NCBI GenBank assembly: GCA_015068345.1
Contig: SVKS01000001.1
Location: forward strand, 3,712 to 67,711
Source: Oscillospiraceae bacterium
GTDB lineage: Bacteria; Bacillota; Clostridia; Oscillospirales; QAMX01
Direction of reading: 5' to 3'
Length of the DNA: 64,000 bases
The number at the start of each line of letters is the position of its first letter. Within the stretch, counting starts at the first letter, position 1. Positions 2,396 to 55,241 of the stretch are shown in pieces. The translations under genes and the position numbers were made by a program. The notes below the pieces were generated by a model. It ran no database searches, was not told where the DNA came from, and was given only the letters and a program-made list of their open reading frames with translations.

Positions 2396-4051
2396 ATGGA
2401 AGAAAACAGCAGTAACTTCATTTTTGATATTATCGATGCCGACCTGGCCGAAGGCCGGGAGGACCACGTTCAGACCCGGTTCCCGCCGGAACCCAACGGC
2501 AGACTGCACATTGGTTCTGCCAAAGCCATTTACATCAACTACACCACCGCCCGTAAATACGGCGGTAAGTTCAACCTGCGTTTCGACGATACCAACCCCT
2601 CCAAGGAAAACGAGGACTATTGCCGCTCTATCTATGAAGACATTCTCTGGCTTACCGGGGAAGAACCCAGCGGTGGCGTTTACTACGGCTCCGACTACTT
2701 TGATAAGTGCTTTGAATACGCTGTAAAGCTGATCAAGGACGGTAAGGCTTACGTTTGTGACCTGACCGCCGATGAAATGCGGGAATACCGTGGCACCCTG
2801 ACCACCCCGGGTAAGGAAAGCCCCTACCGTAACCGTAGTGTGGAAGAAAATCTGGATCTCTTCTACCGTATGCGGGACGGCGAATTCCCGGATGGTGCCA
2901 AGACCCTGCGTGCCAAAATCGACATGGCAAGCCCCAACATGAACATGCGTGACCCGGCCATCTACCGGATCCTGCACATGAGCCACCATCGCCAGGGGGA
3001 CAAATGGTGCGTTTACCCTCTCTACGACTTTGCCCACCCCATTCAGGATGCCACCGAAGGTATCACCCACTCCCTGTGTTCCATCGAATTCTCCGATCAC
3101 CGTGTGCTGTATGATTGGGTGGTGGACAACATCGGGTTTGAGCATAAGCCCCATCAGTATGAATTTGCCCGCCTGAACGTGACCTACACTGTCATGAGCA
3201 AGCGTTACCTCAGAAGCTTGGTGGAAGAAAACATTGTGGACGGATGGGATGACCCCCGCCTGCCCACCCTGTCGGGTCTGCGCCGTCGTGGCTATACCCC
3301 CTCCGCCCTGTTCGATTTTATCCGCCGTTCGGGTATCTCTAAGACCTTGTCCACCGCCGACGTGGGTCTTTTGGAACATTGCATCCGGGAAGAGCTCAAC
3401 AAGACCGCCCTGCGCCGGGTAGCCGTGCTGAAGCCCCTGAAGGTGATTCTGACCAACTATCCTGAGGACAAGGTAGAATACTTTGCCCTGCCCAACAATC
3501 CGGAAGATCCCGAAGCCGGTACCCGCGATCTTCCCTTCACCCGGGAACTTTACATCGATCAGGACGACTTCGCCATGGTGCCGCCTCCCAAGTTCCATCG
3601 CCTGTCTCCGGGCAAGGAGGTTCGCCTGATGGGTGCTTACATTATCAAGTGCGAAGAAGCCATCACCGATGAAAACGGCAACGTGGTGGAACTCCACTGC
3701 ACCGCCGACCTGGAAACCGGATCGGGTAACCCTGTGGACGGCCGCAAGGTTCGCGGCGTTTCCCATTGGCTTTCTGCCAAGTACGCGGTGGACGCCAAGG
3801 CAAACCTCTATAATCACCTCCTGACCCTGGAAATCACCAGTGACCTTCCGGAGGACAAAACCTACAACGATTACTTCAACCCCGAATCGCTGGAAGTGGT
3901 GGAAGGCATGAAGCTGGAACCCTCCCTGGCAGAATTCAAGCCCGGTGAAAAGTATCAGTTCGTGCGGGTGGGTTACTTCACCGGCGATATTCGTCATCCC
4001 GGTGTTTATAACCGCATTGTCGGTTTGAAGGGCTCCTATAAAGTAAAATAA
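2396..4051 (+). CDS. glnS: glutamine--tRNA ligase (GlnRS)
   Basis: RFPPEPNGRLHIGSAKA (HIGH), LRFDDTNP, VMSKR (KMSKS), and a C-terminal beta-barrel anticodon-binding region (QFVRVGYF). It lies 6 nt after the gltX stop. Confidence 0.93.
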   Translation: MEENSSNFIFDIIDADLAEGREDHVQTRFPPEPNGRLHIGSAKAIYINYTTARKYGGKFNLRFDDTNPSKENEDYCRSIYEDILWLTGEEPSGGVYYGSDYFDKCFEYAVKLIKDGKAYVCDLTADEMREYRGTLTTPGKESPYRNRSVEENLDLFYRMRDGEFPDGAKTLRAKIDMASPNMNMRDPAIYRILHMSHHRQGDKWCVYPLYDFAHPIQDATEGITHSLCSIEFSDHRVLYDWVVDNIGFEHKPHQYEFARLNVTYTVMSKRYLRSLVEENIVDGWDDPRLPTLSGLRRRGYTPSALFDFIRRSGISKTLSTADVGLLEHCIREELNKTALRRVAVLKPLKVILTNYPEDKVEYFALPNNPEDPEAGTRDLPFTRELYIDQDDFAMVPPPKFHRLSPGKEVRLMGAYIIKCEEAITDENGNVVELHCTADLETGSGNPVDGRKVRGVSHWLSAKYAVDAKANLYNHLLTLEITSDLPEDKTYNDYFNPESLEVVEGMKLEPSLAEFKPGEKYQFVRVGYFTGDIRHPGVYNRIVGLKGSYKVK

Positions 4052-32633: not shown

Positions 32634-32707
32634 TGGCTGCCGAAGAAGGATTTGAACCCTCACAAACAGATCCAGAGTCTGTCGTGCTACCCTTACACAA
32701 TTCGGCA
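32634..32707 (-). tRNA. tRNA-Gln (anticodon CUG)
   Basis: Hand-folded cloverleaf, 74 nt with an encoded CCA. Acceptor stem UGCCGAA/UUCGGCA (U1:A72), discriminator G73, D-arm GUGU-AAGGGUA-GCAC. Anticodon arm ACAGA-CUCUGGA-UCUGU (anticodon CUG). T-arm GAGGG-UUCAAAU-CCUUC. Confidence 0.85.
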
Positions 32708-44956: not shown

Positions 44957-46135
44957 TTAGTCGTATAAGGGTTCGTATTCGGTAGCTCCCGCAAGGCAAG
45001 CCTCAATCAGGGCATCCTTGTTCAGATGGGCTTCGGCTTCCTCCAGATCCGCCATGCGGGGACGGAGCCGGGGATGCTTGGGTGTGAATACGGTACAACA
45101 ATCCTCGTAAGGGAGAATGGAGGTTTCATAGGTGTCGATTTTACGGGAAATCTGCACGATTTCTTCCTTATCCATGCCGATCAGGGGACGGAGCACCGGC
45201 AGGGTAGCCAGGGCTTCGGTGACACCGAGGGCACCCAGGGTCTGGCTTGCTACCTGGCCCAGGCTTTCACCGGTGATGATGGCGTGGGAATCGTACTTTT
45301 CCGAAAGGCGGCAGGCGCATTCCATCATCATGCGCCGCATAATCAGGGTGAAAAGGTCTTCGGGACAGTTGTCACGAATGGCCAGCTGGGCTTCGGTGAA
45401 AGGAACCACAAAGACACGCATCCGACCGGTGTAGCGGGTCAACTTGCCTGCCAGGGTCAGAACCTTTTCCCGGGCCCGCTGGGAGGTATAGGGAGGGCTT
45501 TCAAAGTGGACGGCGATCATTTCAAGACCCCGCTTGCCCATCATCCAGGCAGCCACAGGACTGTCGATACCCCCCGAAAGGAGCAGGGTACCCCGTCCGG
45601 CAGAACCCACCGGCATACCGCCGGCACCGGGAACCTTTTCTCCGTGAACGTAGGCGGCAAAGTCCCTCACCTCCACAGTGACGGTCATTTCGGGGTTGTG
45701 TACGTCCACCTCCAGGTGGGGATACTTCGAAAGAATGTCTCCTCCCAGGGTGCGCATGATTTCGGGGGAATTCATGGGGAAGCGCTTGTCGGAACGCTTG
45801 GCATCCACCTTGAAGCTCTGGGCAAAGGAGAGAGAATTCCCCAGGAAAGCCAGGGCGGTTTCCCGGATGGAAGCGTAATTCTTTTCGCATTCGGCGGCCA
45901 GGGACAGGGAAACAATGCCGAAAATATCCTTGCAGGCTTCAAATGCCCGGTCGATGGCATCCTCTTCCCCGGCGGTACATCGGATGTAGATGGTGGATTG
46001 GGCACTGCGCAGGTTGAAATTGCCAAAGGCGGAGATACGGCGGCGAATGTTGGACATAAGCTTTTCTTCAAAGCTGCGGCGGTTGAGTCCCTTCAGGGCG
46101 ATTTCGCCCAGTTTCAATAATATGATTCGTTCCAT
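44957..46135 (-). CDS. thiI: tRNA 4-thiouridine synthase ThiI
   Basis: N-terminal ferredoxin-like/THUMP region (LKLGEIALKG) and PP-loop SGGIDSPVA. Confidence 0.9.
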   Translation of the reverse strand: MERIILLKLGEIALKGLNRRSFEEKLMSNIRRRISAFGNFNLRSAQSTIYIRCTAGEEDAIDRAFEACKDIFGIVSLSLAAECEKNYASIRETALAFLGNSLSFAQSFKVDAKRSDKRFPMNSPEIMRTLGGDILSKYPHLEVDVHNPEMTVTVEVRDFAAYVHGEKVPGAGGMPVGSAGRGTLLLSGGIDSPVAAWMMGKRGLEMIAVHFESPPYTSQRAREKVLTLAGKLTRYTGRMRVFVVPFTEAQLAIRDNCPEDLFTLIMRRMMMECACRLSEKYDSHAIITGESLGQVASQTLGALGVTEALATLPVLRPLIGMDKEEIVQISRKIDTYETSILPYEDCCTVFTPKHPRLRPRMADLEEAEAHLNKDALIEACLAGATEYEPLYD

Positions 46136-47259
46136 TATTCAATCCTCAAAAGCGTCGGCAAAACGGCCTTCAGAGCCTCTGCCAAGGCGCAGATTTCTTC
46201 TTTTGTGTTTTCGTGGGACAGGCTGATGCGCAGGTAGGCGTCGGCGTGACGATGATCAATTCCCACCGCCGAGAGTACGTGGCTGATTTTTCCCTTGGCG
46301 CAGGCGGCGCCGGAGGAAACGCAGATTCCGTAGGTTTCCAGGGCGTGGAGACAAACCTCGCTTTTGTATCCCGGCAGGGACAGGGCGATCAGGTAGGGGG
46401 ATTGGTTGGCAAAGGGTAGAATCTCCACCTCCGGAATGGCCGACAGAAGGTCAATGCCATATTCATGTAACTCCTGCACGTGAGCCAGCCGGGTGGTGAA
46501 TTCCCGTTTCCCTTCTTCGCAGGCGGCACCAAAAGCCGCCAGAGCGGGCATGGCTTCGGTGCCGGAACGAATCCCCTTTTCCTGGCCGCCGCCAAGGATC
46601 ATGGGACGAATCCGGACCTCCTTTTTGTGCCAAAGAGCGCCGGCTCCCTTGATGCCATGAATTTTGTGGGCGCTGACGGTGGCAAGATCTACCCCCATGC
46701 GGGCGGGGATGAATTCGGTTTTCAAAAAACCCTGTACCGCATCGGTGTGGAAAAGGACTTTGCTCTTCTTACGCTTCAGCATGGCGGCTACTTCCCGGAT
46801 AGGCTGGATGGAGCCGGTTTCGTTGTTTACCAGCATCAGGGAGACCAACCCGGTTTCAGGGCGAAGATGGGAAGCGATTTCCTCCGGAGTGACGATCCCC
46901 TGGCTGTTTGGCATGGCGTAAGAAACGGCCACTCCGGCTGCTTCCAGGGCCTTGGTGGGAGCAAGAATGGCATCATGCTCCATGGCGCTGACGATGATGT
47001 GCCGGGCCCGGGCGGCAAGGGCGGTGTGAAGCACCAGATTATCTCCTTCGGTACCACCGGAGGTGAAGAGTATTTCGTCGGAGGAAGCTCCCAGTGCATC
47101 GGCCACCTGACGGCGGGCGGTGCGCAGCAGCTTTTCGGCTTCCAACCCTCCCATATGCAGGGAGGAGGGATTATAATAAACCTGTTCCATCGCCTCGTTT
47201 GCGGCCCGGATGGCAGCGGCGGAGGGACGGGTGGTTGCGGCATTGTCCAGATAAATCAA
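46135..47259 (-). CDS. class V cysteine desulfurase (NifS/NifZ/IscS-type, ThiI partner)
   Basis: YLDNAATT, SAHKIHG (PLP Lys), active-site SSGAAC. I trimmed the start to TTG 47259 (GAGG RBS) because a good promoter lies at 47330-47358, inside the longer ORF. The start is uncertain. The stop overlaps the thiI ATG by 1 nt (TAATG). Confidence 0.85.
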   Translation of the reverse strand: MIYLDNAATTRPSAAAIRAANEAMEQVYYNPSSLHMGGLEAEKLLRTARRQVADALGASSDEILFTSGGTEGDNLVLHTALAARARHIIVSAMEHDAILAPTKALEAAGVAVSYAMPNSQGIVTPEEIASHLRPETGLVSLMLVNNETGSIQPIREVAAMLKRKKSKVLFHTDAVQGFLKTEFIPARMGVDLATVSAHKIHGIKGAGALWHKKEVRIRPMILGGGQEKGIRSGTEAMPALAAFGAACEEGKREFTTRLAHVQELHEYGIDLLSAIPEVEILPFANQSPYLIALSLPGYKSEVCLHALETYGICVSSGAACAKGKISHVLSAVGIDHRHADAYLRISLSHENTKEEICALAEALKAVLPTLLRIE

Positions 47260-47329
47260 AAATGAGACCTCACAGTCAATCAATTCGAATGGCAGGGTAT
47301 ACGAAACGCCAAAATACCATTCATAATCT

Positions 47330-47358
47330 ATTATACCATTCTGAGCCCCCTTTGTAAA
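47330..47358 (-). promoter_or_regulatory. sigma-A-type promoter heading the long minus-strand operon
   Basis: Minus strand: TTTACA (47358-53), 17 nt, TGgTATAAT (-10 at 47335-30). Confidence 0.6.
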
Positions 47359-47409
47359 GAAATTTGCACTGCAAAAAGGGGAAAAATCCCTCTTTGACCG
47401 GCCGTTTGC

Positions 47410-47438
47410 TTGACAAGTTGAACGAAGGATATTATAAT
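47410..47438 (+). promoter_or_regulatory. consensus sigma-A promoter for the M23 peptidase gene
   Basis: TTGACA (47410-15), 17 nt, TATAAT (47433-38). Confidence 0.7.
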
Positions 47439-47493
47439 AGGGTCGGTTTGCCGACATGATGAAATCATGGGGCATGGAAGGAACGCGTATTAC

Positions 47494-48924
47494 ATGAAAA
47501 GAAAACAGCTATACCACCTGGCGTGGGATGAAATAGAAGAGAACCGGGAAGCGGAACGCCAATACCAGGATAACCTGAAACGGCGGGGAAAATCCCGTCT
47601 TTGGGGAACGACCCTTCTGATGGCGGCCTCTGTTTTACTGTTTCTTGGCCTTGGTATGAAGCCGGCTGTGGCTCTCACGGTGGAGGGGGAAAGGATTGCC
47701 TGTGCAAAGGATTGGGAAAGTTATTCCTCCACCCTGGAGGAATTGAAGGTTGAAGCGGAAGAAGACCTGGATACCGAACTTTTGACCGAGGAACCCAACC
47801 TTTCGTTGGCCATCGTCCCCGATTTTGCCATTGATGATGCCGGGGAACTCCAGGACGAGATTCTGGCGTGCAGTCCGGTCACCTATGAGCGCCGCTATGC
47901 GTTTTGGCTTGGAGAAAGGCTTCTGGGAACCATTGCCCAGGATGAGGTGGAGGAAGCGCGGGCTAAGGTGGAGGAATACCGGGCTGTTGTGGCGAAGGAA
48001 TATGAATGGGCATCTGACGTGACGGTTACCGGGACTCTCCGGGAAGAACTGCGCCTTTCCACAGAGGAAGAGTTCATCACCCCGGAAGAGCTGTATACCG
48101 CCTTGAATGAGACGGATGGGGTTGCGAAGAGGTACAAGCTGAAGGTGGGGGAAGACTATCAGGACGTAATGGAGCGTTTCTCTCTGGACGAGGCAACTCT
48201 CATAAGCTACAACCCGGAAAAACCCCTTTCGGATTACAAAAGAGGAGATGAAATTGTTGTTTCTGCCCCGGATCGGGTGTTTGACGTGTCCTATTCCTTC
48301 CGGACTACCTACACCGAAACCATTCCCTTTGACATAACCTACAAAAATACCCGTACCCTCCTGGTGGGGGAAGAGGGGGTCCGGACCGAAGGGACCTCGG
48401 GGCTTTCGGAGGTGACGGCGATCATGACTGTTGAAAACGGAAAGGTAACCGAAAAAGAGGTGCTTTCCGAAACGGTTATCCGGGAACCGGTGGCGGCGGT
48501 TCATCTGAAAGGTGTCCGCAAGGATACCGGAAAGATGTTTTACCATCCGGTGGATAATGCCCGGATCTCCAGCGAGTTTGGGTACCGAACTCTGTTTGGT
48601 GGCAGGGACTACCACACCGGTGTGGATTTTGTGGTACCCGAAGGGACCTACGTCTATGCCGCCGCGGATGGCGTGGTCAAATCCTCCGGCATCATCGGCA
48701 ACGGCGCCTACGGCAGGGTGGTGGTGATTGACCATCAGAACGGATTTGTCACCTACTACGCCCACAACAGTAAGCTTCTGGTGAAGGTGGGCGATCGGGT
48801 AGTGAAGGGGGAAGCCATTGCCCTTTCGGGCAATACCGGCCGATCCACCGGTCCCCATTGCCATTTTGAGGTTCGGAAAAACGGGGTGCAGGTCAATCCC
48901 TTCCTGTATATGGCCCGTCCGTAA
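47494..48924 (+). CDS. membrane-anchored M23-family metalloendopeptidase with LysM-like and G5 domains
   Basis: C-terminal M23 motifs YHTGVDF...HNS...GNTGRSTGPHCHFEV. G5-like TETIPFDITYKNTRTLLVGEEGVRTEGTSG. N-terminal TM helix. The start is ATG 47494 or 47467. Confidence 0.85.
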   Translation: MKRKQLYHLAWDEIEENREAERQYQDNLKRRGKSRLWGTTLLMAASVLLFLGLGMKPAVALTVEGERIACAKDWESYSSTLEELKVEAEEDLDTELLTEEPNLSLAIVPDFAIDDAGELQDEILACSPVTYERRYAFWLGERLLGTIAQDEVEEARAKVEEYRAVVAKEYEWASDVTVTGTLREELRLSTEEEFITPEELYTALNETDGVAKRYKLKVGEDYQDVMERFSLDEATLISYNPEKPLSDYKRGDEIVVSAPDRVFDVSYSFRTTYTETIPFDITYKNTRTLLVGEEGVRTEGTSGLSEVTAIMTVENGKVTEKEVLSETVIREPVAAVHLKGVRKDTGKMFYHPVDNARISSEFGYRTLFGGRDYHTGVDFVVPEGTYVYAAADGVVKSSGIIGNGAYGRVVVIDHQNGFVTYYAHNSKLLVKVGDRVVKGEAIALSGNTGRSTGPHCHFEVRKNGVQVNPFLYMARP

Positions 48925-48949
48925 AGTGAAAAATATTTGTACATCCTAC

Positions 48950-48983
48950 TTGACAGGGTGAAAGCAATGTGCTATGCTATAAA
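48950..48983 (+). promoter_or_regulatory. sigma-A-type promoter of the leader/ABC exporter unit
   Basis: TTGACA (48950-55), 17 nt, TATGCT (48973-78). An overlapping extended -10 TGcTATAAA lies at 48975-83. Confidence 0.55.
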
Positions 48984-49026
48984 TCGTGGTCGAAAGGCCA
49001 ATATTCAATGAAAGGAGGCGGAGTTT

Positions 49027-49101
49027 GTGCGCAATATCGTTTTAAATGCAAGTTACAGTGGAAATAGCGGCAATCTCTGCCTTGAAAATATACTGCATTA
49101 A
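49027..49101 (+). CDS. candidate regulatory leader peptide (24 codons)
   Basis: AAAGGAGG (49011-18), 8 nt, then GTG. Encodes MRNIVLNASYSGNSGNLCLENILH and a TAA stop. It is below the ORF-track size cut-off. An alternative 19-codon ORF starts at ATG 49008 (MKGGGVCAQYRFKCKLQWK) with a weaker RBS. Confidence 0.45.
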   Translation: MRNIVLNASYSGNSGNLCLENILH

Positions 49102-49164
49102 TTGCCAGTATTGCGGGGCAGGAGGCGTAGTGCGTCTGTCCCGGAGCAGAAAATGGGTCATTTT

Positions 49165-49195
49165 CCCCCGGCAGTCGCTTGCCGGGGGTTTTTTT
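49165..49195 (+). terminator. intrinsic terminator (attenuator) inside the ABC exporter leader
   Basis: CCCCCGGCA-GTCGCT-TGCCGGGGG (9-bp perfect stem, 8 G:C pairs) followed by TTTTTTT, 68 nt upstream of the ABC start codon. Confidence 0.75.
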
Positions 49196-49263
49196 GTACC
49201 AAGTCCCTGCCCGTCTGTATTTCTCGTTTGAAAAATTTATTTCATAGAAAGGAGAGGATTCAT

Positions 49264-51099
49264 ATGAACTCCTCCAAGGGAAGCCTGCGAAGAATCTGGT
49301 TTTTCATGAAGGGAAAACGACTCCATTATGTGGGTGCCATTCTCCTGGTGATCACCAACGTGGCTCTGCAGTACGTGGGACCGCTGATCTCTTCCTGGAC
49401 CATCGACCGTATCATCACCGGGGGTGACATGGAAGTTCCCGGCATGGTGGTAAATCTGGTCAATTCCATGGGCGGCAAGGAATTTATTGCCGCAAACCTG
49501 TGGTTCTGCGCCCTGATTCTGGCGCTGATCACCGGTCTTCGGGGTGTTTGCAGCTTTTTCCAGGCCAAACTCCTGAACACCGCGTCGGAATACACCGTGC
49601 GGCGTATCAAGGACTCCCTCTATTCCCACATTCAGGACCTGCCCTTTGACTATCACGTCAAGGCCGAAACCGGCGACATGGTCCAGCGTTGCACCACCGA
49701 CGTGGAAACGGTTCGCCGCTTTATTTCGGGCCAGCTGGTGGAGCTCTGCCGGGGCATCTTTATGCTTCTAGTGGCGGTAGTGATCCTGGGTCGGGTCAGC
49801 CTGGTGCTTACCCTCCTGTCTCTGGTCCTGATGCCCTTTGCCATTTTCTTCTCCTGGGCCTTCCACAAAAATGCCGCCAAGCAGTTTAAGGTGGTGGACG
49901 AAGCCGACGGCGCCATGACCACCGTCCTGCAGGAAAACCTCACCGGTGTCCGGGTGGTGCGTGCCTTTGGCCGCCAGGAATTTGAACGGCAAAAGTTTTC
50001 CGATGCCATCGATAAACTCTTTGAAGCCTGCAAAAAGCTCAACAATATGTTTGCCTTCTTCTGGAGCTTTTCCGATTTCACCGCTGTGGCACAGCAGGCA
50101 GTTACCCTGATGGGTGCCATGTACTTCGTCATTGAAAAGGATATGTCCTACGGTAACTTCCTTCTTTTCAACTCCTACATCGGTATGCTGATCTGGCCTC
50201 TGCGTCAGCTGGGCCGCGTGCTTTCCGATGCAGCGAAAATGTCCATTGCCATGGGACGTGTGGATGAAATTCTCTTTGAAACCAGCGAATATAAGGATGA
50301 AACTCCCCAAAACACCAAAAAGCCTCCTATCCGGGCGGATATCGTGTTTGACGGAGTGTCCTTCTCCTACGATTCGCTTCCGGTACTCAAAAACGTCAGC
50401 TTCACTGCCAAAGCCGGGGAAACCGTGGCCATTCTTGGGCCTACCGGATCGGGCAAATCCACCCTGGTCCAGCTCCTCCAGCGTCTTTACGACTGCAAAG
50501 AGGGAAAAATTACCATCGGTGGTGTGGATATCAAGAATATCGACCGGCATTATCTGCGAAGCCGGGTTGGTATCGTACTTCAGGAGCCCTTCCTGTATTC
50601 CCGCAGTATCGAGGAAAACATCGGTATCACCTGCACCACTCCCGAACCGGAGCGAGTCCGGGAAATGGCGGCGGTGGCTTCGGTTCACGACGTGATCGAA
50701 AGCTTTGAAGAGGGCTATGAAACTCTGGTGGGTGAACGGGGCGTTACCCTTTCGGGCGGTCAGAAACAGCGAGTTGCCATTGCCCGTACCCTGATGAAGG
50801 ACAACGATATACTGATTTTCGACGACTCCCTTTCGGCGGTGGATACCGAAACCGACGCCAAGATCCGGGAAGAACTCAACACCCGTTGCGAAGGCATCAC
50901 CACCTTCATCATTTCCCATCGCATCAGTACTCTGTCCGGGGCTGATAAGATCATTGTTCTGGAGGATGGCAGAATTTCTGCCTGTGGTACCCACCAGGAA
51001 CTGATCGAAATCGAAGGTATGTATAAGCGCATTTACGAAATCCAAAGCATGGTGGAAACCGTGGAACGAGAGGAGGGAACACTCAATGCCCAGAATTAA
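49264..51099 (+). CDS. heterodimeric ABC exporter subunit 1 (TMD-NBD; degenerate-site NBD)
   Basis: 6-TM domain. GPTGSGKST, LSGGQKQR, and Walker B ILIFDDS (Asp in place of the catalytic Glu). Start at ATG 49264 (AAAGGAGAGG RBS). Confidence 0.88.
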   Translation: MNSSKGSLRRIWFFMKGKRLHYVGAILLVITNVALQYVGPLISSWTIDRIITGGDMEVPGMVVNLVNSMGGKEFIAANLWFCALILALITGLRGVCSFFQAKLLNTASEYTVRRIKDSLYSHIQDLPFDYHVKAETGDMVQRCTTDVETVRRFISGQLVELCRGIFMLLVAVVILGRVSLVLTLLSLVLMPFAIFFSWAFHKNAAKQFKVVDEADGAMTTVLQENLTGVRVVRAFGRQEFERQKFSDAIDKLFEACKKLNNMFAFFWSFSDFTAVAQQAVTLMGAMYFVIEKDMSYGNFLLFNSYIGMLIWPLRQLGRVLSDAAKMSIAMGRVDEILFETSEYKDETPQNTKKPPIRADIVFDGVSFSYDSLPVLKNVSFTAKAGETVAILGPTGSGKSTLVQLLQRLYDCKEGKITIGGVDIKNIDRHYLRSRVGIVLQEPFLYSRSIEENIGITCTTPEPERVREMAAVASVHDVIESFEEGYETLVGERGVTLSGGQKQRVAIARTLMKDNDILIFDDSLSAVDTETDAKIREELNTRCEGITTFIISHRISTLSGADKIIVLEDGRISACGTHQELIEIEGMYKRIYEIQSMVETVEREEGTLNAQN

Positions 51100-52942
51100 C
51101 GAAGAAGAATTTGTGGATAAAAAAGTAGACTTTCGTATGTGGGGAAAGATCATCCGCTACGCAAAGCCCTTCTACAAGTATATTTTCTGTGTGTTTTTCT
51201 TTATGAGTGCCTCCTCCCTGTGTGACGTACTCAATCCCCTGATCATGTCCCACCTGATCGACCATAACCTGATTCCTCAGACCTGGGACGGAGCTCCCCT
51301 TTACATGGCTCTTTACGTGGCGGTGGTCCTCTTCCAGATTGTTACCACCTATGGATTCATCCGTTCCGCCAATGCGGTGGAATTGGGGCTCACCACAAGA
51401 CTTCGCCGGCTGGCGTTTGAAAAGCTGCAGACCCTGTCCTTCTCCTATTATGATAAGACCCCTGTGGGTTACATCATGTCCCGCCTCACCAGCGATGCCC
51501 AGCGCCTGTCGGATACCATCGCCTGGTCCTGCGTGGATATTTTCTGGAGCGTGGTCTTTATGATCACGGCGGCCATCATCATGCTCTTTACCAACTGGAA
51601 GCTGGCACTGATGCTGATCGCCACTACCCCCTTTATTGCGGTCATCAGCTACTTTTTCCAGAAGGTGATTCTGAAAAACTACCGTCTGGTCCGCAGTGCC
51701 AACTCCAAAATCACCGGCGCCTTCAACGAGGGTATCATGGGTGCAAAAACCACCAAGACCCTGGTGCAAGAGGAAGCCAACAACAAGGAATTCTACGGAC
51801 TTACCGAAAATATGCAGACCCACAGCGTCAAGGCGGCGGTCTTCTCTGCCATCTACTGGCCCATTATCATGACCATCGGCAGTATTGGTACCGGCTTGAT
51901 TCTCTGGCAGGGCGGCGCAAATGTGCTTGCCGGGGTGATCACCCTTGGTGAATTCAGCTTCTTCATGACCCTGGGCGGTTACTTCTTCGAACCCATCAAC
52001 AACCTGGCCCGTATTTTTGCCGAAGTGCAATCGGCCCAGGCGGCGGTGGAACGTGTCATTACCCTGATGGATACCCCGTCGGATATCCAGGATACTCCCG
52101 AAGTGGTGGAAAAGTTTGGGGACGAATTCGTTGGAAAAACCGAAAACTGGCCGGCCCTTCGCGGGGATGTGGAATTCAAAAACGTCACCTTCAAGTACAA
52201 GGATGGGCAGACGGTCCTTCGCAACTTCTCTTTGAAAATCAAGCAGGGAGAGCGCATTGCTTTGGTTGGCGAAACCGGCAGCGGTAAGTCCACCATTGTA
52301 AACCTGATCTGCCGCTTCTACGAACCCACCGAGGGTACCATCGAAATCGACGGTGTGGACTATCGGGAGCGCAGTCAGCTTTGGCTCCATTCCAATCTTG
52401 GCTACGTGCTCCAGTCGCCCCAGCTTTTCTCCGGCACCATCCGGGAAAATATCCGCTATGGTCGTTTGGATGCCACCGATGAAGAGGTGGAAGAGGTCGC
52501 CAAAATGGTGGATGCCGCAAGCTTTATCAATCGCCTGGAAAAGGGTTATGAAACCGAAGTGGGTGAAGGCGGCGGCCGTCTGAGTACCGGGGAAAAACAG
52601 CTCATTTCTTTTGCCCGGGCCATTCTGGCAAATCCGGCCATCTTTGTGTTGGACGAAGCTACCTCCTCCATCGATACCGAAACCGAGGCCATGATTCAGC
52701 GGGCTATCGAACGGGTGCTGGATGGACGCACCAGCTTCATTATTGCCCACCGTCTTTCCACCATTCGCTCCTGCGACCGGATCCTGGTCATTGACAAGGG
52801 TGAGGTGGTGGAAGCCGGCAGCCATCGCCAGTTAATGGCTCTTGGCGGACGCTACTATAACCTTTACACCACCCAGTTCAAGAACGAACGGGAAGCCGAA
52901 TCCCTCAGCCTTTTGGGCGTGAAACGGGAAGCGGAAGAATAA
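51086..52942 (+). CDS. heterodimeric ABC exporter subunit 2 (TMD-NBD; consensus-site NBD)
   Basis: GETGSGKST, deviant signature LSTGEKQ, canonical Walker B FVLDEATSSID. It overlaps subunit 1 by 14 nt. Confidence 0.88.
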   Translation: MPRINEEEFVDKKVDFRMWGKIIRYAKPFYKYIFCVFFFMSASSLCDVLNPLIMSHLIDHNLIPQTWDGAPLYMALYVAVVLFQIVTTYGFIRSANAVELGLTTRLRRLAFEKLQTLSFSYYDKTPVGYIMSRLTSDAQRLSDTIAWSCVDIFWSVVFMITAAIIMLFTNWKLALMLIATTPFIAVISYFFQKVILKNYRLVRSANSKITGAFNEGIMGAKTTKTLVQEEANNKEFYGLTENMQTHSVKAAVFSAIYWPIIMTIGSIGTGLILWQGGANVLAGVITLGEFSFFMTLGGYFFEPINNLARIFAEVQSAQAAVERVITLMDTPSDIQDTPEVVEKFGDEFVGKTENWPALRGDVEFKNVTFKYKDGQTVLRNFSLKIKQGERIALVGETGSGKSTIVNLICRFYEPTEGTIEIDGVDYRERSQLWLHSNLGYVLQSPQLFSGTIRENIRYGRLDATDEEVEEVAKMVDAASFINRLEKGYETEVGEGGGRLSTGEKQLISFARAILANPAIFVLDEATSSIDTETEAMIQRAIERVLDGRTSFIIAHRLSTIRSCDRILVIDKGEVVEAGSHRQLMALGGRYYNLYTTQFKNEREAESLSLLGVKREAEE

Positions 52943-53255: not shown

Positions 53256-55241
53256 ATGGCAAACAGAACTTCATCCAGTCGAAATGAAAATCGCCCGATG
53301 TCCAGCGCAGCCCGAGCAAGGGAGCGGATCCGTCGCCGCAAGGAGCAGGAAAGACGCAGAAAAATGCAAATTCTGGCCTGTACCCTGGCGGGGCTGGTCC
53401 TTTTGGGCGTGGTGGCCATTGTGGCCCTTTCTGCCTACTTCAAGGCAGATGATTATGACGATAAGGTTTATCCCAATATCTATGCTGCCGGAGTGGAGCT
53501 TTCGGGTATGACGGAAGAGGAAGCCCGGATTGCCATCGAGGAAGCAGCGGCAAAATATTACCAGGAAAATAAAATCGACCTGACCTACGGTAACGACGTG
53601 CTCCCCATTTACGGCAGTGATGTAGGGATGAAGGTAGATGCTATCTCTGCTGCCCGGGAAGCCGTGAATTATGGCAAGGACCTGGAAGGCAAAGATCAGC
53701 GCAAGCTTCTGAAGGGGAAAGCCGGCCGGATCGATATTCCCACGGTGGGTTCCTATGATGATGCCCTCCTGCTTGCCAAGGTGGAAGAGTTTGCTACCAT
53801 GGTGGAGGATAAGATATCGGTTAACAGCTACGAACTGACCGAGCTTTCAGTGAAGATTGACCTCTCCAATAACGGCTACGTATTGGATATCGCAACCATC
53901 CATAATGATCTTGGGGAAAAATTGTTGGCAGGGGACTTTACCGAATATCTGGCAACTCCTGTGCAGATGACGCCCCAGAACCTGAAGATTGAAGAAATTT
54001 ACCAGAGCGTCTTTGTGGAACCCAAGGATGCCTATATGGAATACGTTCCCGCCGAGTGGGGAACCGAAGAGACCCTGGAAGGCTTTGATATGGCAAACTA
54101 TAGCGGTAAGCTCAAATACCGGATTCAGCCCGAAACCGTGGGTATTTCCTTTGACCTGGAGGCCGCCAAGGCCGAACTGGCATCTGCGGGAGACAAAAAG
54201 GTGTTTGAGTTCCTGCTTATCAAGACCAATCCCCAGGTGACCACCGAATCTCTGCAAAATTCGATTTACAAGAATGTACTCAGCTCGGTTACCACCAAAC
54301 TCACCAGCGAAAAGAACCGTACTGCAAACGTCAAACTTGCCAGTCAGTCGGTGAATGGTCTTGAACTGATGCCGGGAGAGGTTTTCTCCTTCAATCAGGC
54401 GGTTGGCCAGCGCACCGAAGCCAGGGGCTTCAAAAAAGCCGGTACCTTTGTGAAGGGCGAAGTGGTGGATGAAATCGGCGGCGGCATCTGCCAGGTTTCC
54501 AGCACCATCTATATGGCGACCCTGCTCACCAACCTGGAGCAGGTGGAACGCGCGCCCCATCGCTTTGCTGTAACCTACACACCCCTTGGCCAGGATGCCA
54601 CCGTTTACTGGGGGTCCTTGGATTATCGCTTCAAAAACGACACAGACTATCCCATCAAGATTCTTGCGGAAGTCAGCGGCAGCAGTCTGACGGTGAAGGT
54701 GCTTGGCACCAAAACCGACTCCTACAAGTATAAGCTTTCCACCACCACCAACTCCACCAAGGAGTTCAAGGAAGAAACCAAGTATATCGCCCTGGGCGGC
54801 GAGGAAGCCCTGGAATACGAACTGGAAAAGCTGGGTGAAAAGAAGGTCACAGGGGGTAAGAAGGGCTATACCTGTTCCACCTATCTGATCACCTATGACG
54901 AAAACGGGACCGAAGTATCCCGCAAGAAAGTGAACGATTCCAGCTACAAGACCCAGGATAAGGTTACCTACATTGCCTGTTACCTGAATGAAAAGGGTGA
55001 ACCCATTTTGGATGAAAAGGGCGAACCTATGGATCCCAATGCGCCGGTGACTTCGGAACCCACTACGACGACTCCGAACACACCCTCAACCGAACCTACT
55101 ACAAAGCCCGAACCTCCCACCAGCGAACCCGAAACCACGACGACTCCCGAACCTCCCACCAGTGAAACCGAAACCTCTCCCTCCACCGAAGAACCCGACG
55201 TGGGAGAAGGCGCAGGGCAGGCGGATCCGGGCTCGCGGTAA
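53256..55241 (+). CDS. VanW-family protein with N-terminal TM anchor, G5 domain and Pro/Thr/Glu-rich tail
   Basis: VanW core PGEVFSFNQAVGQRTEARGFKKAG...GGGICQVSSTIY...PLGQDATV. A G5-like segment follows. The C-terminus is TSEPTTTTPNTPSTEPTTKPEPPTSEPETTTTPEPPTSETETSPSTEEP. Confidence 0.85.
   Translation: MANRTSSSRNENRPMSSAARARERIRRRKEQERRRKMQILACTLAGLVLLGVVAIVALSAYFKADDYDDKVYPNIYAAGVELSGMTEEEARIAIEEAAAKYYQENKIDLTYGNDVLPIYGSDVGMKVDAISAAREAVNYGKDLEGKDQRKLLKGKAGRIDIPTVGSYDDALLLAKVEEFATMVEDKISVNSYELTELSVKIDLSNNGYVLDIATIHNDLGEKLLAGDFTEYLATPVQMTPQNLKIEEIYQSVFVEPKDAYMEYVPAEWGTEETLEGFDMANYSGKLKYRIQPETVGISFDLEAAKAELASAGDKKVFEFLLIKTNPQVTTESLQNSIYKNVLSSVTTKLTSEKNRTANVKLASQSVNGLELMPGEVFSFNQAVGQRTEARGFKKAGTFVKGEVVDEIGGGICQVSSTIYMATLLTNLEQVERAPHRFAVTYTPLGQDATVYWGSLDYRFKNDTDYPIKILAEVSGSSLTVKVLGTKTDSYKYKLSTTTNSTKEFKEETKYIALGGEEALEYELEKLGEKKVTGGKKGYTCSTYLITYDENGTEVSRKKVNDSSYKTQDKVTYIACYLNEKGEPILDEKGEPMDPNAPVTSEPTTTTPNTPSTEPTTKPEPPTSEPETTTTPEPPTSETETSPSTEEPDVGEGAGQADPGSR

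Follow-up and report, generated by a model that had tools for sequence, protein, structure and literature searches.

A probable ribosome-mediated attenuator whose Shine–Dalgarno sequence can pair within its own leader ORF precedes a BmrCD-class ABC exporter operon in rumen and gut Clostridia

We analysed a 64,000-nucleotide stretch of contig SVKS01000001.1 from an Oscillospiraceae bacterium (the window), in which 339 nt separate the stop codon of an M23/G5 peptidase gene (48924) from the start of the first of two overlapping ATP-binding cassette (ABC) exporter genes (49264). Our subject is the leader in this gap and its candidate role as a transcription attenuator of the exporter operon. A previous reading of the same DNA, made from the letters and ORF translations without database searches (the sequence-only reading), had described a promoter (TTGACA-17-TATGCT), a ribosome-binding site (RBS) with a GTG-initiated 24-codon open reading frame (ORF), a terminator and overlapping ABC genes in the 339-nt gap and beyond it, and we found all of these in place. 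The main features are as follows.

48950..48978, forward strand: sigma-A-type promoter, with the −35 element TTGACA at 48950-55, a 17-nt spacer and the −10 element TATGCT at 48973-78
49011..49023, forward strand: Shine–Dalgarno (SD) sequence of the leader, AAAGGAGG (49011-18), plus flank, 8 nt ahead of the GTG at 49027
49027..49101, forward strand: leader ORF encoding MRNIVLNASYSGNSGNLCLENILH, with a GTG start, 24 codons and a TAA stop at 49099-49101
49165..49195, forward strand: intrinsic terminator (segments 3 and 4), with a 10-bp stem CCCCCGGCAG/UUGCCGGGGG whose closing pair is G·U, a 4-nt loop UCGC and U7
49247..49257, forward strand: RBS of the first ABC gene, GAAAGGAGAGG, 6 nt ahead of the ATG at 49264 and unchanged in orthologs (alignment A1)
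49264..51099, forward strand: ABC1, a half-transporter with transmembrane and nucleotide-binding domains (TMD-NBD) of BmrC/TM287 type (ABC_membrane and ABC_tran domains)
51086..52942, forward strand: ABC2, a TMD-NBD half-transporter of BmrD/TM288/TmrA type (ABC_membrane and ABC_tran domains)

A consensus scan scored the promoter at 10 of 12 matches, with a TG extended −10, and predicted a transcription start site near 48985; the TTGACA and the −10 frame are unchanged across five orthologs (A1). The same kind of scan found no promoter-like site between 49195 and 49264. The leader ORF stops 63 nt before the terminator starts. At the DNA level the terminator reads CCCCCGGCAG-TCGC-TTGCCGGGGG (49165-49188) followed by T7 to 49195, with a folding energy of −20.4 kcal/mol, and it is by far the strongest terminator-like site between 47000 and 54000 (10 pairs, 8 of them GC). 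The leader ORF has a GC content of 37%, compared with 54% in the adjacent genes, and atypical codon usage, including the rare codons TTA (codon 6), AGT (codons 9 and 11) and ATA (codon 22).

The two exporter genes overlap by 14 nt. We read in both proteins the asymmetric motifs that the sequence-only reading had listed: ABC1 has Walker A GPTGSGKS, a canonical LSGGQ signature and Walker B ILIFDD, in which Asp replaces the catalytic Glu, and ABC2 has a canonical Walker B FVLDE and a deviant signature, LSTGE. The pair, a heterodimeric type-IV exporter, thus has one degenerate and one consensus ATP site. The best match of ABC1 among solved half-transporters is BmrC/YheI (8e-86, PDB search), and ABC2 matches TM_0288 (1e-113), TmrA (7e-106) and BmrD/YheH (3e-96). 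ABC1 is 31% identical to the BmrC ortholog of Metabacillus, which likewise has an Asp in ILILDD. Since a true ortholog matches the solved BmrC chain at 6e-274 rather than 8e-86, and given the 31% identity, these comparisons indicate that ABC1 and ABC2 are not orthologous to BmrC and BmrD. No NCBIfam model reached its cut-off on the exporter proteins, and none assigned a specific function.

We compared the leader with those of related loci, designated L001 to L037. An identical ABC1 protein is encoded on 17 metagenomic contigs, whose leaders are identical too, so that the leaders of L001-L006 are uninformative for single-nucleotide polymorphisms. Close orthologs, all from metagenome-assembled genomes (MAGs) of rumen or gut Clostridia/Ruminococcaceae, are L011 (98% identity) and L008, L009, L010 and the metagenomic L020 (82%). 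A protein search supplied the more distant L024 (57%) and L025 (54%), a group at 42-46% (L026, L029, L030/31, L032, L033, L034/35, L036 and L037, of which L036 is the cultured Abyssisolibacter fermentans) and two homologs at 31%, L012 from a Lachnospiraceae and L013 from Metabacillus indicus LMG 22858, which is likewise cultured. L013 encodes the genuine BmrC/YheI ortholog mentioned above (E = 6e-274 to the solved B. subtilis chain). A metagenome scan with a TMD alignment returned three loci, one of them useful, and the homolog protein search did not list relatives above 80%; owing to these sparse returns the close-clade sample stays at five distinct leaders, which is too small a number to test the long-range helices formally for covariation.

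The layout of the leader is widely conserved. Alignment of five close orthologs (A1) recovered the promoter, a 5′ hairpin, the RBS with a short ORF, a middle hairpin, the terminator stem CCCCGGCA/UGCCGGGG and the ABC1 RBS, with promoter, RBS-ORF and terminator at equal relative positions in the 98% and 82% orthologs. The same layout extends to homologs as distant as 31% identity, with leaders too divergent to align. At 15 of 16 distinct homologous loci (31-98% identity), GGAGG is followed after 8-10 nt by ATG (13 loci) or GTG (2 loci); the ORFs of these 15 leaders have 22-45 codons, and downstream of them comes a single terminator or a pair of interlocking hairpins, 30-140 nt ahead of the exporter start. 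In five leaders (L025, L030, L033, L036 and L013) a U-run also follows the middle hairpin, which yields two tandem intrinsic terminators interlocked by a single antiterminator. Terminator-to-ABC-start spacers in the homologs measure 31-68 nt, and the shortest (31-45 nt) leave no room for a second promoter. The upstream neighbours vary from locus to locus and often lie on the opposite strand (M23 peptidase, NUDIX, S24/HTH, sigma/anti-sigma, NrdG, hydrogenase), whereas the leader persists, which ties it to the exporter operon. As controls we examined seven distant ABC homologs (Proteobacteria, Bacteroidetes and other groups), and none of the seven has such a leader.

The leader RNA can be described as a series of segments, numbered 0, 0′, 1, 2, 3 and 4 from the 5′ side, the last two being the arms of the terminator.

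49015..49023, forward strand: segment 0, GAGGCGGAG, the SD flank and 5′ strand of the SD:anti-SD helix
49075..49083, forward strand: anti-SD segment 0′, CUCUGCCUU, in leader codons 17-19, able to pair with the SD flank or with segment 1 (GGGGCAGGAG)
49114..49143, forward strand: hairpin 1:2, with 5′ arm CGGGGCAG (49114-21) and 3′ arm CUGUCCCG (49136-43), −17.8 kcal/mol
49132..49140, forward strand: GCGUCUGUC, spanning segment 2 and the bases on its 5′ side, a candidate antiterminator strand that could pair, but for one U·U mismatch, with GGCAGUCGC at 49170-78 in the 5′ arm and loop of the terminator

Pairing of the SD with an anti-SD segment inside the leader ORF is the most conserved feature of the family, and the sequence-only reading had missed it. 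In minimum-free-energy (MFE) folds of all leaders the SD flank is paired to a segment within its own ORF. For the window, the interaction of the SD flank with the ORF body reaches −19.3 kcal/mol, with a z score of −3.7 relative to dinucleotide shuffles. Over 13 leaders the mean z is −2.8, and 11 of the 13 are significant at p <= 0.05 (dinucleotide shuffles of the ORF body); the control pairing, the ABC1 SD with its own first codons, gave a mean z of +0.4. The paired sequences covary between clades, as in GGAGGCGGAG:CUCUGCCUU, AAAGGAGCGGGAAAAA:UUUUUCCCGCCUUUU, GGAGGUCGUG:CACGACCU and GGAGGUAAC:GUUACCUC. The distal zone of the ORF is in addition complementary to the segment-1 zone, the 5′ arm of the next hairpin (mean z −2.0, negative at 9 of 9 loci).

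Downstream of the ORF, hairpin 1:2 begins 12 nt past the leader stop codon, and in every locus at least 12 nt, and in some more than 30 nt, separate the stop from the next hairpin. An RNAalifold consensus of six orthologs shows double-sided compensatory changes at four of the eight pairs of 1:2, which is a candidate anti-antiterminator and might in addition act as a pause hairpin. All close orthologs keep the terminator stem CCCCGGCA/TGCCGGGG. Its 5′ arm has a candidate upstream partner in both arrangements that we distinguished: segment 2 in class A, and the anti-SD itself in class B (L026, L029 and L032), which lacks hairpin 1:2. Every class A and class B locus shows terminator-arm complementarity (mean z −1.4), and L011, L024, L030 and L033 show it strongly. 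In L011 the 2:3 pairing (GGCAGACGC) is a perfect 9-bp duplex (−21.4 kcal/mol, z −3.0); the loop change U49175A perfects it, and a C·A mismatch weakens the L011 terminator. Equivalents of 2:3 are GAUCUGCC:GGCAGGUC in L009 and CCUGCC:GGCAGG in L008 and L010. Tandem hairpins with repeated arms occur in L024, L030, L033 and L013, and the leader of L013, the bmrC ortholog, combines SD:anti-SD closure, a short ORF and interlocking hairpins (fold z −7.3).

Several of these pairings bear on the sequence-only reading. The CTCTGCC:GGCAG(G)AG pairing that it had suggested corresponds to one of the conserved alternative helices. Its other candidate, CGGGG:CCCCG (1:3), is possible in the window; as a conserved antiterminator it fails, the 82% clade having GAAGGCA in place of GGGGCAG in segment 1. 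We also found GTCCCGGAGCAG at 49138-49, as it had been placed, whereas GCGGGGCAGGAGG, assigned to 49121-33, lies at 49113-49125.

The leader peptide itself is variable. Peptides differ by clade (window MRNIVLNASYSGNSGNLCLENILH, L008 MKNQNRGKREIGENRRAAKRISLCFSRLFKG, L009 MKFFGTDQNTVRLGAFRLCRFAE, L013 MKKFIARQFDRKNRFYAAPPCLTAI), no motif is shared across the family, and the sequence is not conserved even at 82% exporter identity. The window peptide does not align with the peptide at the bmrB position of the Metabacillus bmrC ortholog, in keeping with the earlier remark that no similarity between this peptide and BmrB was recognised. Between the window and L011, the ORF carries four non-synonymous and three synonymous changes, and six of the seven fall in codons 6-12, the loop of the 0:0′ helix; the SD flank (0), the distal ORF segment (0′) and the 3′ arm of the middle hairpin (2) are identical. 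An alignment of orthologous leaders had been proposed as a check on whether conservation follows codon structure. In our alignments it tracks the RNA helices and the SD/start geometry instead of the codons. Since we found no conserved arrest motif in the peptides, a broad sensor of slowed translation is expected rather than a drug-specific nascent-chain sensor.

A few local peptide patterns were seen. In L030, L033, L036 and L037 the reading frame across the anti-SD CGACC(U/A) is constant and encodes Arg-Pro as part of [TE]-R-P-[VI], and in L036 a synonymous CCA breaks one SD:anti-SD pair; a peptide-level constraint, perhaps a slow Pro codon, may act here on top of the RNA constraint. Many leaders (window, L030, L037, L036, L013, L026 and others) start M-[RKL]-x-[IMF]-[VAI]-[LFI], as in MRNIVL, MRTIVF, MISMVL, MLNMAI and MKKFIA, and R-x-R is common to the leaders of L026 and L029 (IRVRD, IRTRD). 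Both patterns bear some resemblance to macrolide-arrest leader motifs.

We conclude that the window leader is probably a ribosome-mediated transcription attenuator of a BmrCD-class heterodimeric ABC exporter operon. The proposal of a BmrB-BmrCD-like attenuator ahead of an asymmetric heterodimeric exporter thereby gains computational support, from the conserved architecture, from BmrC as the closest solved half-transporter to ABC1 and from the L013 leader. Should the leader attenuate, our preferred sub-model is a relay governed by an early-stalled ribosome, to which we give a little under an even chance. Transcription starting near 48985 would enter the ABC genes only by reading past the terminator (49165-49195), through a leader acting as a chain of alternately complementary segments (0, 0′, 1, 2, 3 and 4). 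With no ribosome loaded, or with one that briskly crosses 0′ to the stop codon and ends 12 nt short of 1:2, the helices 0:0′, 1:2 and 3:4 would all form and transcription would terminate. A ribosome held on the SD, the start codon or the first ~11 codons, plausibly by translation inhibitors or any other strong slowing, would occupy 0 and leave 0′ free; 0′ could then pair with the emerging segment 1, freeing 2 to pair with 3 (in the short class, B, 0′ would pair with 3 directly). The terminator hairpin could then not nucleate in time and RNA polymerase would read into ABC1-ABC2. Classes A and B would have the same parity, an occupied SD giving read-through. Because the chain of the OFF state would be broken only by a ribosome that covers the SD, start or early codons while 0′ is free, the sensitive range in the window would be P-site codons 1 to ~11.

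Folding models agree with parts of this relay. In growing-chain folds 0′:1 forms once segment 1 is out, and with the SD masked 0′:1 is about isoenergetic with 1:2. For P-site codons 1-3, masking the SD also shifts the terminator 5′ arm towards upstream pairing (mean probability 0.81, up from 0.44), and masked-footprint folding predicts a similar switch in L008 and L010. The same upstream-paired probability, computed on truncated transcripts of 13 loci, discriminates poorly, with baselines already high.

Several observations weigh against a ribosome-operated relay. With a ribosome mask slid along the leader at equilibrium, the terminator probability is at least 0.998 at every position, so antitermination could only be kinetic. 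Because RNA polymerase in Firmicutes often runs ahead of the ribosomes, the timing may need a pause; by eye we found no TTNTTT NusG pause motif after hairpin 1:2, and no pause signal was identified. The 2:3 duplex of the window is weak (−15.0 kcal/mol, z −0.4), and several alternative CUGCC/GGCAG pairings compete within the leader. Nor is the ORF itself beyond question: we infer its translation from its SD and start geometry, the peptide not being conserved, and its openness relative to shuffles is weak (p 0.02-0.6 per locus, Fisher combination ~0.05). The purine-rich ‘SD’ doubles as a helix strand and could be conserved for structure alone. Finally, no clear SD with an ORF was found in the leaders of L034/L035 (a 43% homolog), which at 890-1050 carry tandem terminator-like hairpins with repeated arms (CCATAGG...CCTATGG) and T7, and which may be a translation-independent variant.

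Attenuation could also follow the classical logic of trp or bmrB, in which a ribosome arrested late in the ORF or at its stop codon, by the nascent peptide or a drug, blocks 1:2 and frees segment 2, the SD:anti-SD helix merely limiting the leader to one round of translation. The leaders of L024, L030, L033 and L013 have textbook 1:2 / 2:3 / 3:4 arrangements with repeated arms, the distance from stop codon to hairpin varies little (12-19 nt in many loci), which would set a terminating ribosome against the hairpin base, and some clades have the local peptide motifs described above ([TE]RP[VI] in one frame, R-x-R in L026 and L029). A ribosome covers only ~10 nt 3′ of the stop codon, as known from footprint and toeprint geometry. 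With stops at least 12 nt ahead of the hairpin base in all loci, segment 1 would never be covered and a terminating ribosome could not melt the hairpin, which argues against covering of segment 1 and for early-stall logic. Masking late codons in the model left 1:2 intact, and the classical scheme leaves unexplained the complementarity of the anti-SD to segment 1 or, in class B, to the terminator arm, and lacks a family-wide peptide motif. The published bmrB model does invoke slowed translation within a structured region (PMC4191407); on balance we consider late arrest unlikely here.

The early-stall relay has also to be set against two readings in which translation of the leader plays no regulatory part. 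If the leader were a translation-independent RNA switch (a riboswitch, or an attenuator responsive to a protein, small RNA or tRNA), GGAGG would be a helix strand and the ORF incidental. Conservation at the level of helices instead of peptide would fit such a switch, as would ORF lengths that are not individually significant, the tandem terminators of L034/L035 without an obvious ORF and the PatAB leader, an attenuator for which no leader peptide has been described (PMC4319486). It would leave to chance, however, that every unalignable leader has an ATG (13/15) or GTG (2/15) at 8-10 nt past GGAGG, the optimal Firmicute geometry, and that the ORF always spans the anti-SD and stops ahead of the next hairpin. 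The family shows no conserved core resembling a ligand pocket, loops and lengths varying freely, and Rfam searches up to E 10 gave terminator look-alikes only; we regard a switch of this kind as improbable. Still less probable, in our view, is a stand-alone small-protein gene with its own terminator, the ABC genes being expressed by constitutive, unregulated leak-through. Promoter, RBS, ORF and strong terminator are formally complete for such a gene, and gene callers annotate the small ORF in L036 and L037, but a peptide that is not conserved at 82% exporter identity, the 4:3 ratio of non-synonymous to synonymous changes relative to L011 and the atypical codon usage speak against a functional product. 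The ABC genes would moreover be left without a promoter of their own, and the conserved alternative pairings would have no role in a plain gene.

Among characterized systems, the B. subtilis bmrB-bmrCD operon is the natural comparison. Its leader ORF and terminator mediate induction by lincomycin, chloramphenicol and erythromycin (Reilman et al. 2014, PMC4191407), with terminator, antiterminator and anti-antiterminator inside a 162-nt, 53-codon ORF (PMC4191407) and an additional bmrX/Rae1 layer (PMC10351889). The window resembles it in having a leader ORF and intrinsic terminator between the promoter and a heterodimeric ABC exporter, in the Asp that replaces the Walker B Glu of subunit 1 and in the deviant signature of subunit 2; the leader of the bmrC ortholog in Metabacillus indicus (L013) also shares the window design. 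It differs in that its 24-codon ORF ends 63 nt before the terminator and leaves the structures outside the ORF, in the 31% identity of ABC1 to BmrC and an unrelated leader peptide (compared with that of Metabacillus), in lacking a bmrX-like second small ORF and in its host, an uncultured rumen/gut Clostridia (Ruminococcaceae-like) MAG lineage. The putative window attenuator is thus bmrB-bmrCD-like in its proposed working and not by descent. In L013, a second SD-preceded small ORF, MNVWVSKAEKRVKKGDPESG, lies at 2860-2940, downstream of the tandem terminators and ahead of bmrC, where B. subtilis has the Rae1-cleaved bmrX.

The proposed use of the SD is closer to vmlR, where a ribosome stalled at the start of an upstream ORF (uORF) breaks the anti-antiterminator helix (Takada et al. 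2022, PMC9226507). As in leaders of the vmlR/lmo0919 type, the uORF initiation region of the window forms a strand of the putative anti-antiterminator helix (SD:anti-SD z −3.7), and by the logic proposed here a start-held ribosome would likewise let the antiterminator form, with a middle hairpin between antiterminator and terminator. The leaders differ from the 3-codon uORF of vmlR in their 22-45 codons, which span the anti-SD strand, and the regulated genes carry transmembrane domains, unlike the soluble ribosome-protection ARE-ABCF proteins of vmlR/lmo0919. The heterodimeric ABC multidrug exporter patAB of Streptococcus pneumoniae is likewise preceded by a terminator/antiterminator/anti-antiterminator leader, 67 nt long, in which terminator-stem mutations cause overexpression (Baylay & Piddock 2015, PMC4319486); no leader peptide is described there, and the inducers are fluoroquinolones and DNA damage instead of translation inhibitors. 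With the E. coli trp operon leader, the classical case of 1:2 / 2:3 / 3:4 attenuation (summarised in PMC4191407), our leaders would share hairpins that interlock as alternatives, dependence on translation of the leader and, in the absence of a ribosome, termination (superattenuation). In contrast to trp, no amino acid is over-represented among the sensing codons, the SD itself is predicted to be a switching strand, and the ORF-internal segment lies one step further from the terminator, such that a stall on this segment would favour termination and a stall before it read-through.

The attenuator type is known already and the window instance undescribed; full-text literature searches found no description of this leader family. 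A self-sequestered SD would, if confirmed, make the window leader a distinct variant. Since the L013 bmrC ortholog has the window design, the design spans the exporter family, and a true bmrC ortholog with a leader built in this way suggests a broader family to which the B. subtilis paradigm belongs. We raise only tentatively, as possible but doubtful, the further idea that ‘self-closing leader ORF’ attenuators form a class of their own, so far undescribed and widespread among Bacilli and rumen and gut Clostridia, in which the SD would be the first strand of a four- or six-segment relay with single or interlocking tandem terminators. Such a switch would respond specifically to initiated ribosomes detained ahead of the anti-SD, and would thereby be a broad-spectrum, sequence-independent sensor of arrest during initiation or early elongation that governs exporters of the BmrCD class. 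If this were true, the B. subtilis bmrB model would need revisiting. Should the window switch work as proposed, translation stress would turn on BmrCD-class exporters in uncultured rumen and gut Clostridia through a leader missed by gene callers and Rfam, with a bearing on forecasts of inducible efflux and of tolerance to antibiotics in the microbiomes of gut and rumen. The comparison helps to annotate a recurrent 5′ regulatory element, and for attenuator design the conserved SD pairing offers a testable logic in which an early stall would mean ON and an absent or finished ribosome OFF.

One further element precedes the leader ORF.

48987..49000, forward strand: 5′-proximal hairpin UGGUC-GAAA-GGCCA, present in MFE folds (−6.4 kcal/mol), 2-3 nt from the predicted 5′ end

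Equivalents with other sequences but the same position occur in L008-L011, L024 and L025, and the hairpin is likely to be an mRNA-stabilizing cap at the 5′ end of the leader transcript. The leader ORF of the window also shares the reading frame of ABC1, the frame being open from 49102 to 49263 and interrupted solely by the TAA at 49099-49101. We attribute this match to coincidence, since the corresponding offsets in orthologs (−229, −232, −214 and −248) include no multiple of 3.

Rfam at gathering scores matched a single element in the whole 64-kb window, a tRNA at 32637-32707 on the reverse strand; a permissive search of 48800-49400 (E up to 10) gave best scores of 14-23 bits against gathering scores of 36-100, all driven by terminator hairpins. 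The genes flanking the exporter locus (44957-48924 and 53256-55241) encode the G5-M23 peptidase upstream and a VanW/PG_binding_4 protein downstream, with ThiI and a class-V aminotransferase (NifS/IscS-like) on the reverse strand. This gene order is retained in the near-identical contigs L001-L003 and lost in the distant homologs, which leaves no evident functional link between the neighbours and the exporter. Within the exporter operons themselves, a stop near codon 338 breaks ABC1 of L009 (3001-4830), which is thus either a pseudogene or misassembled in the MAG, and in L032 a DUF559 gene (3287-3649) is inserted between the two ABC genes.

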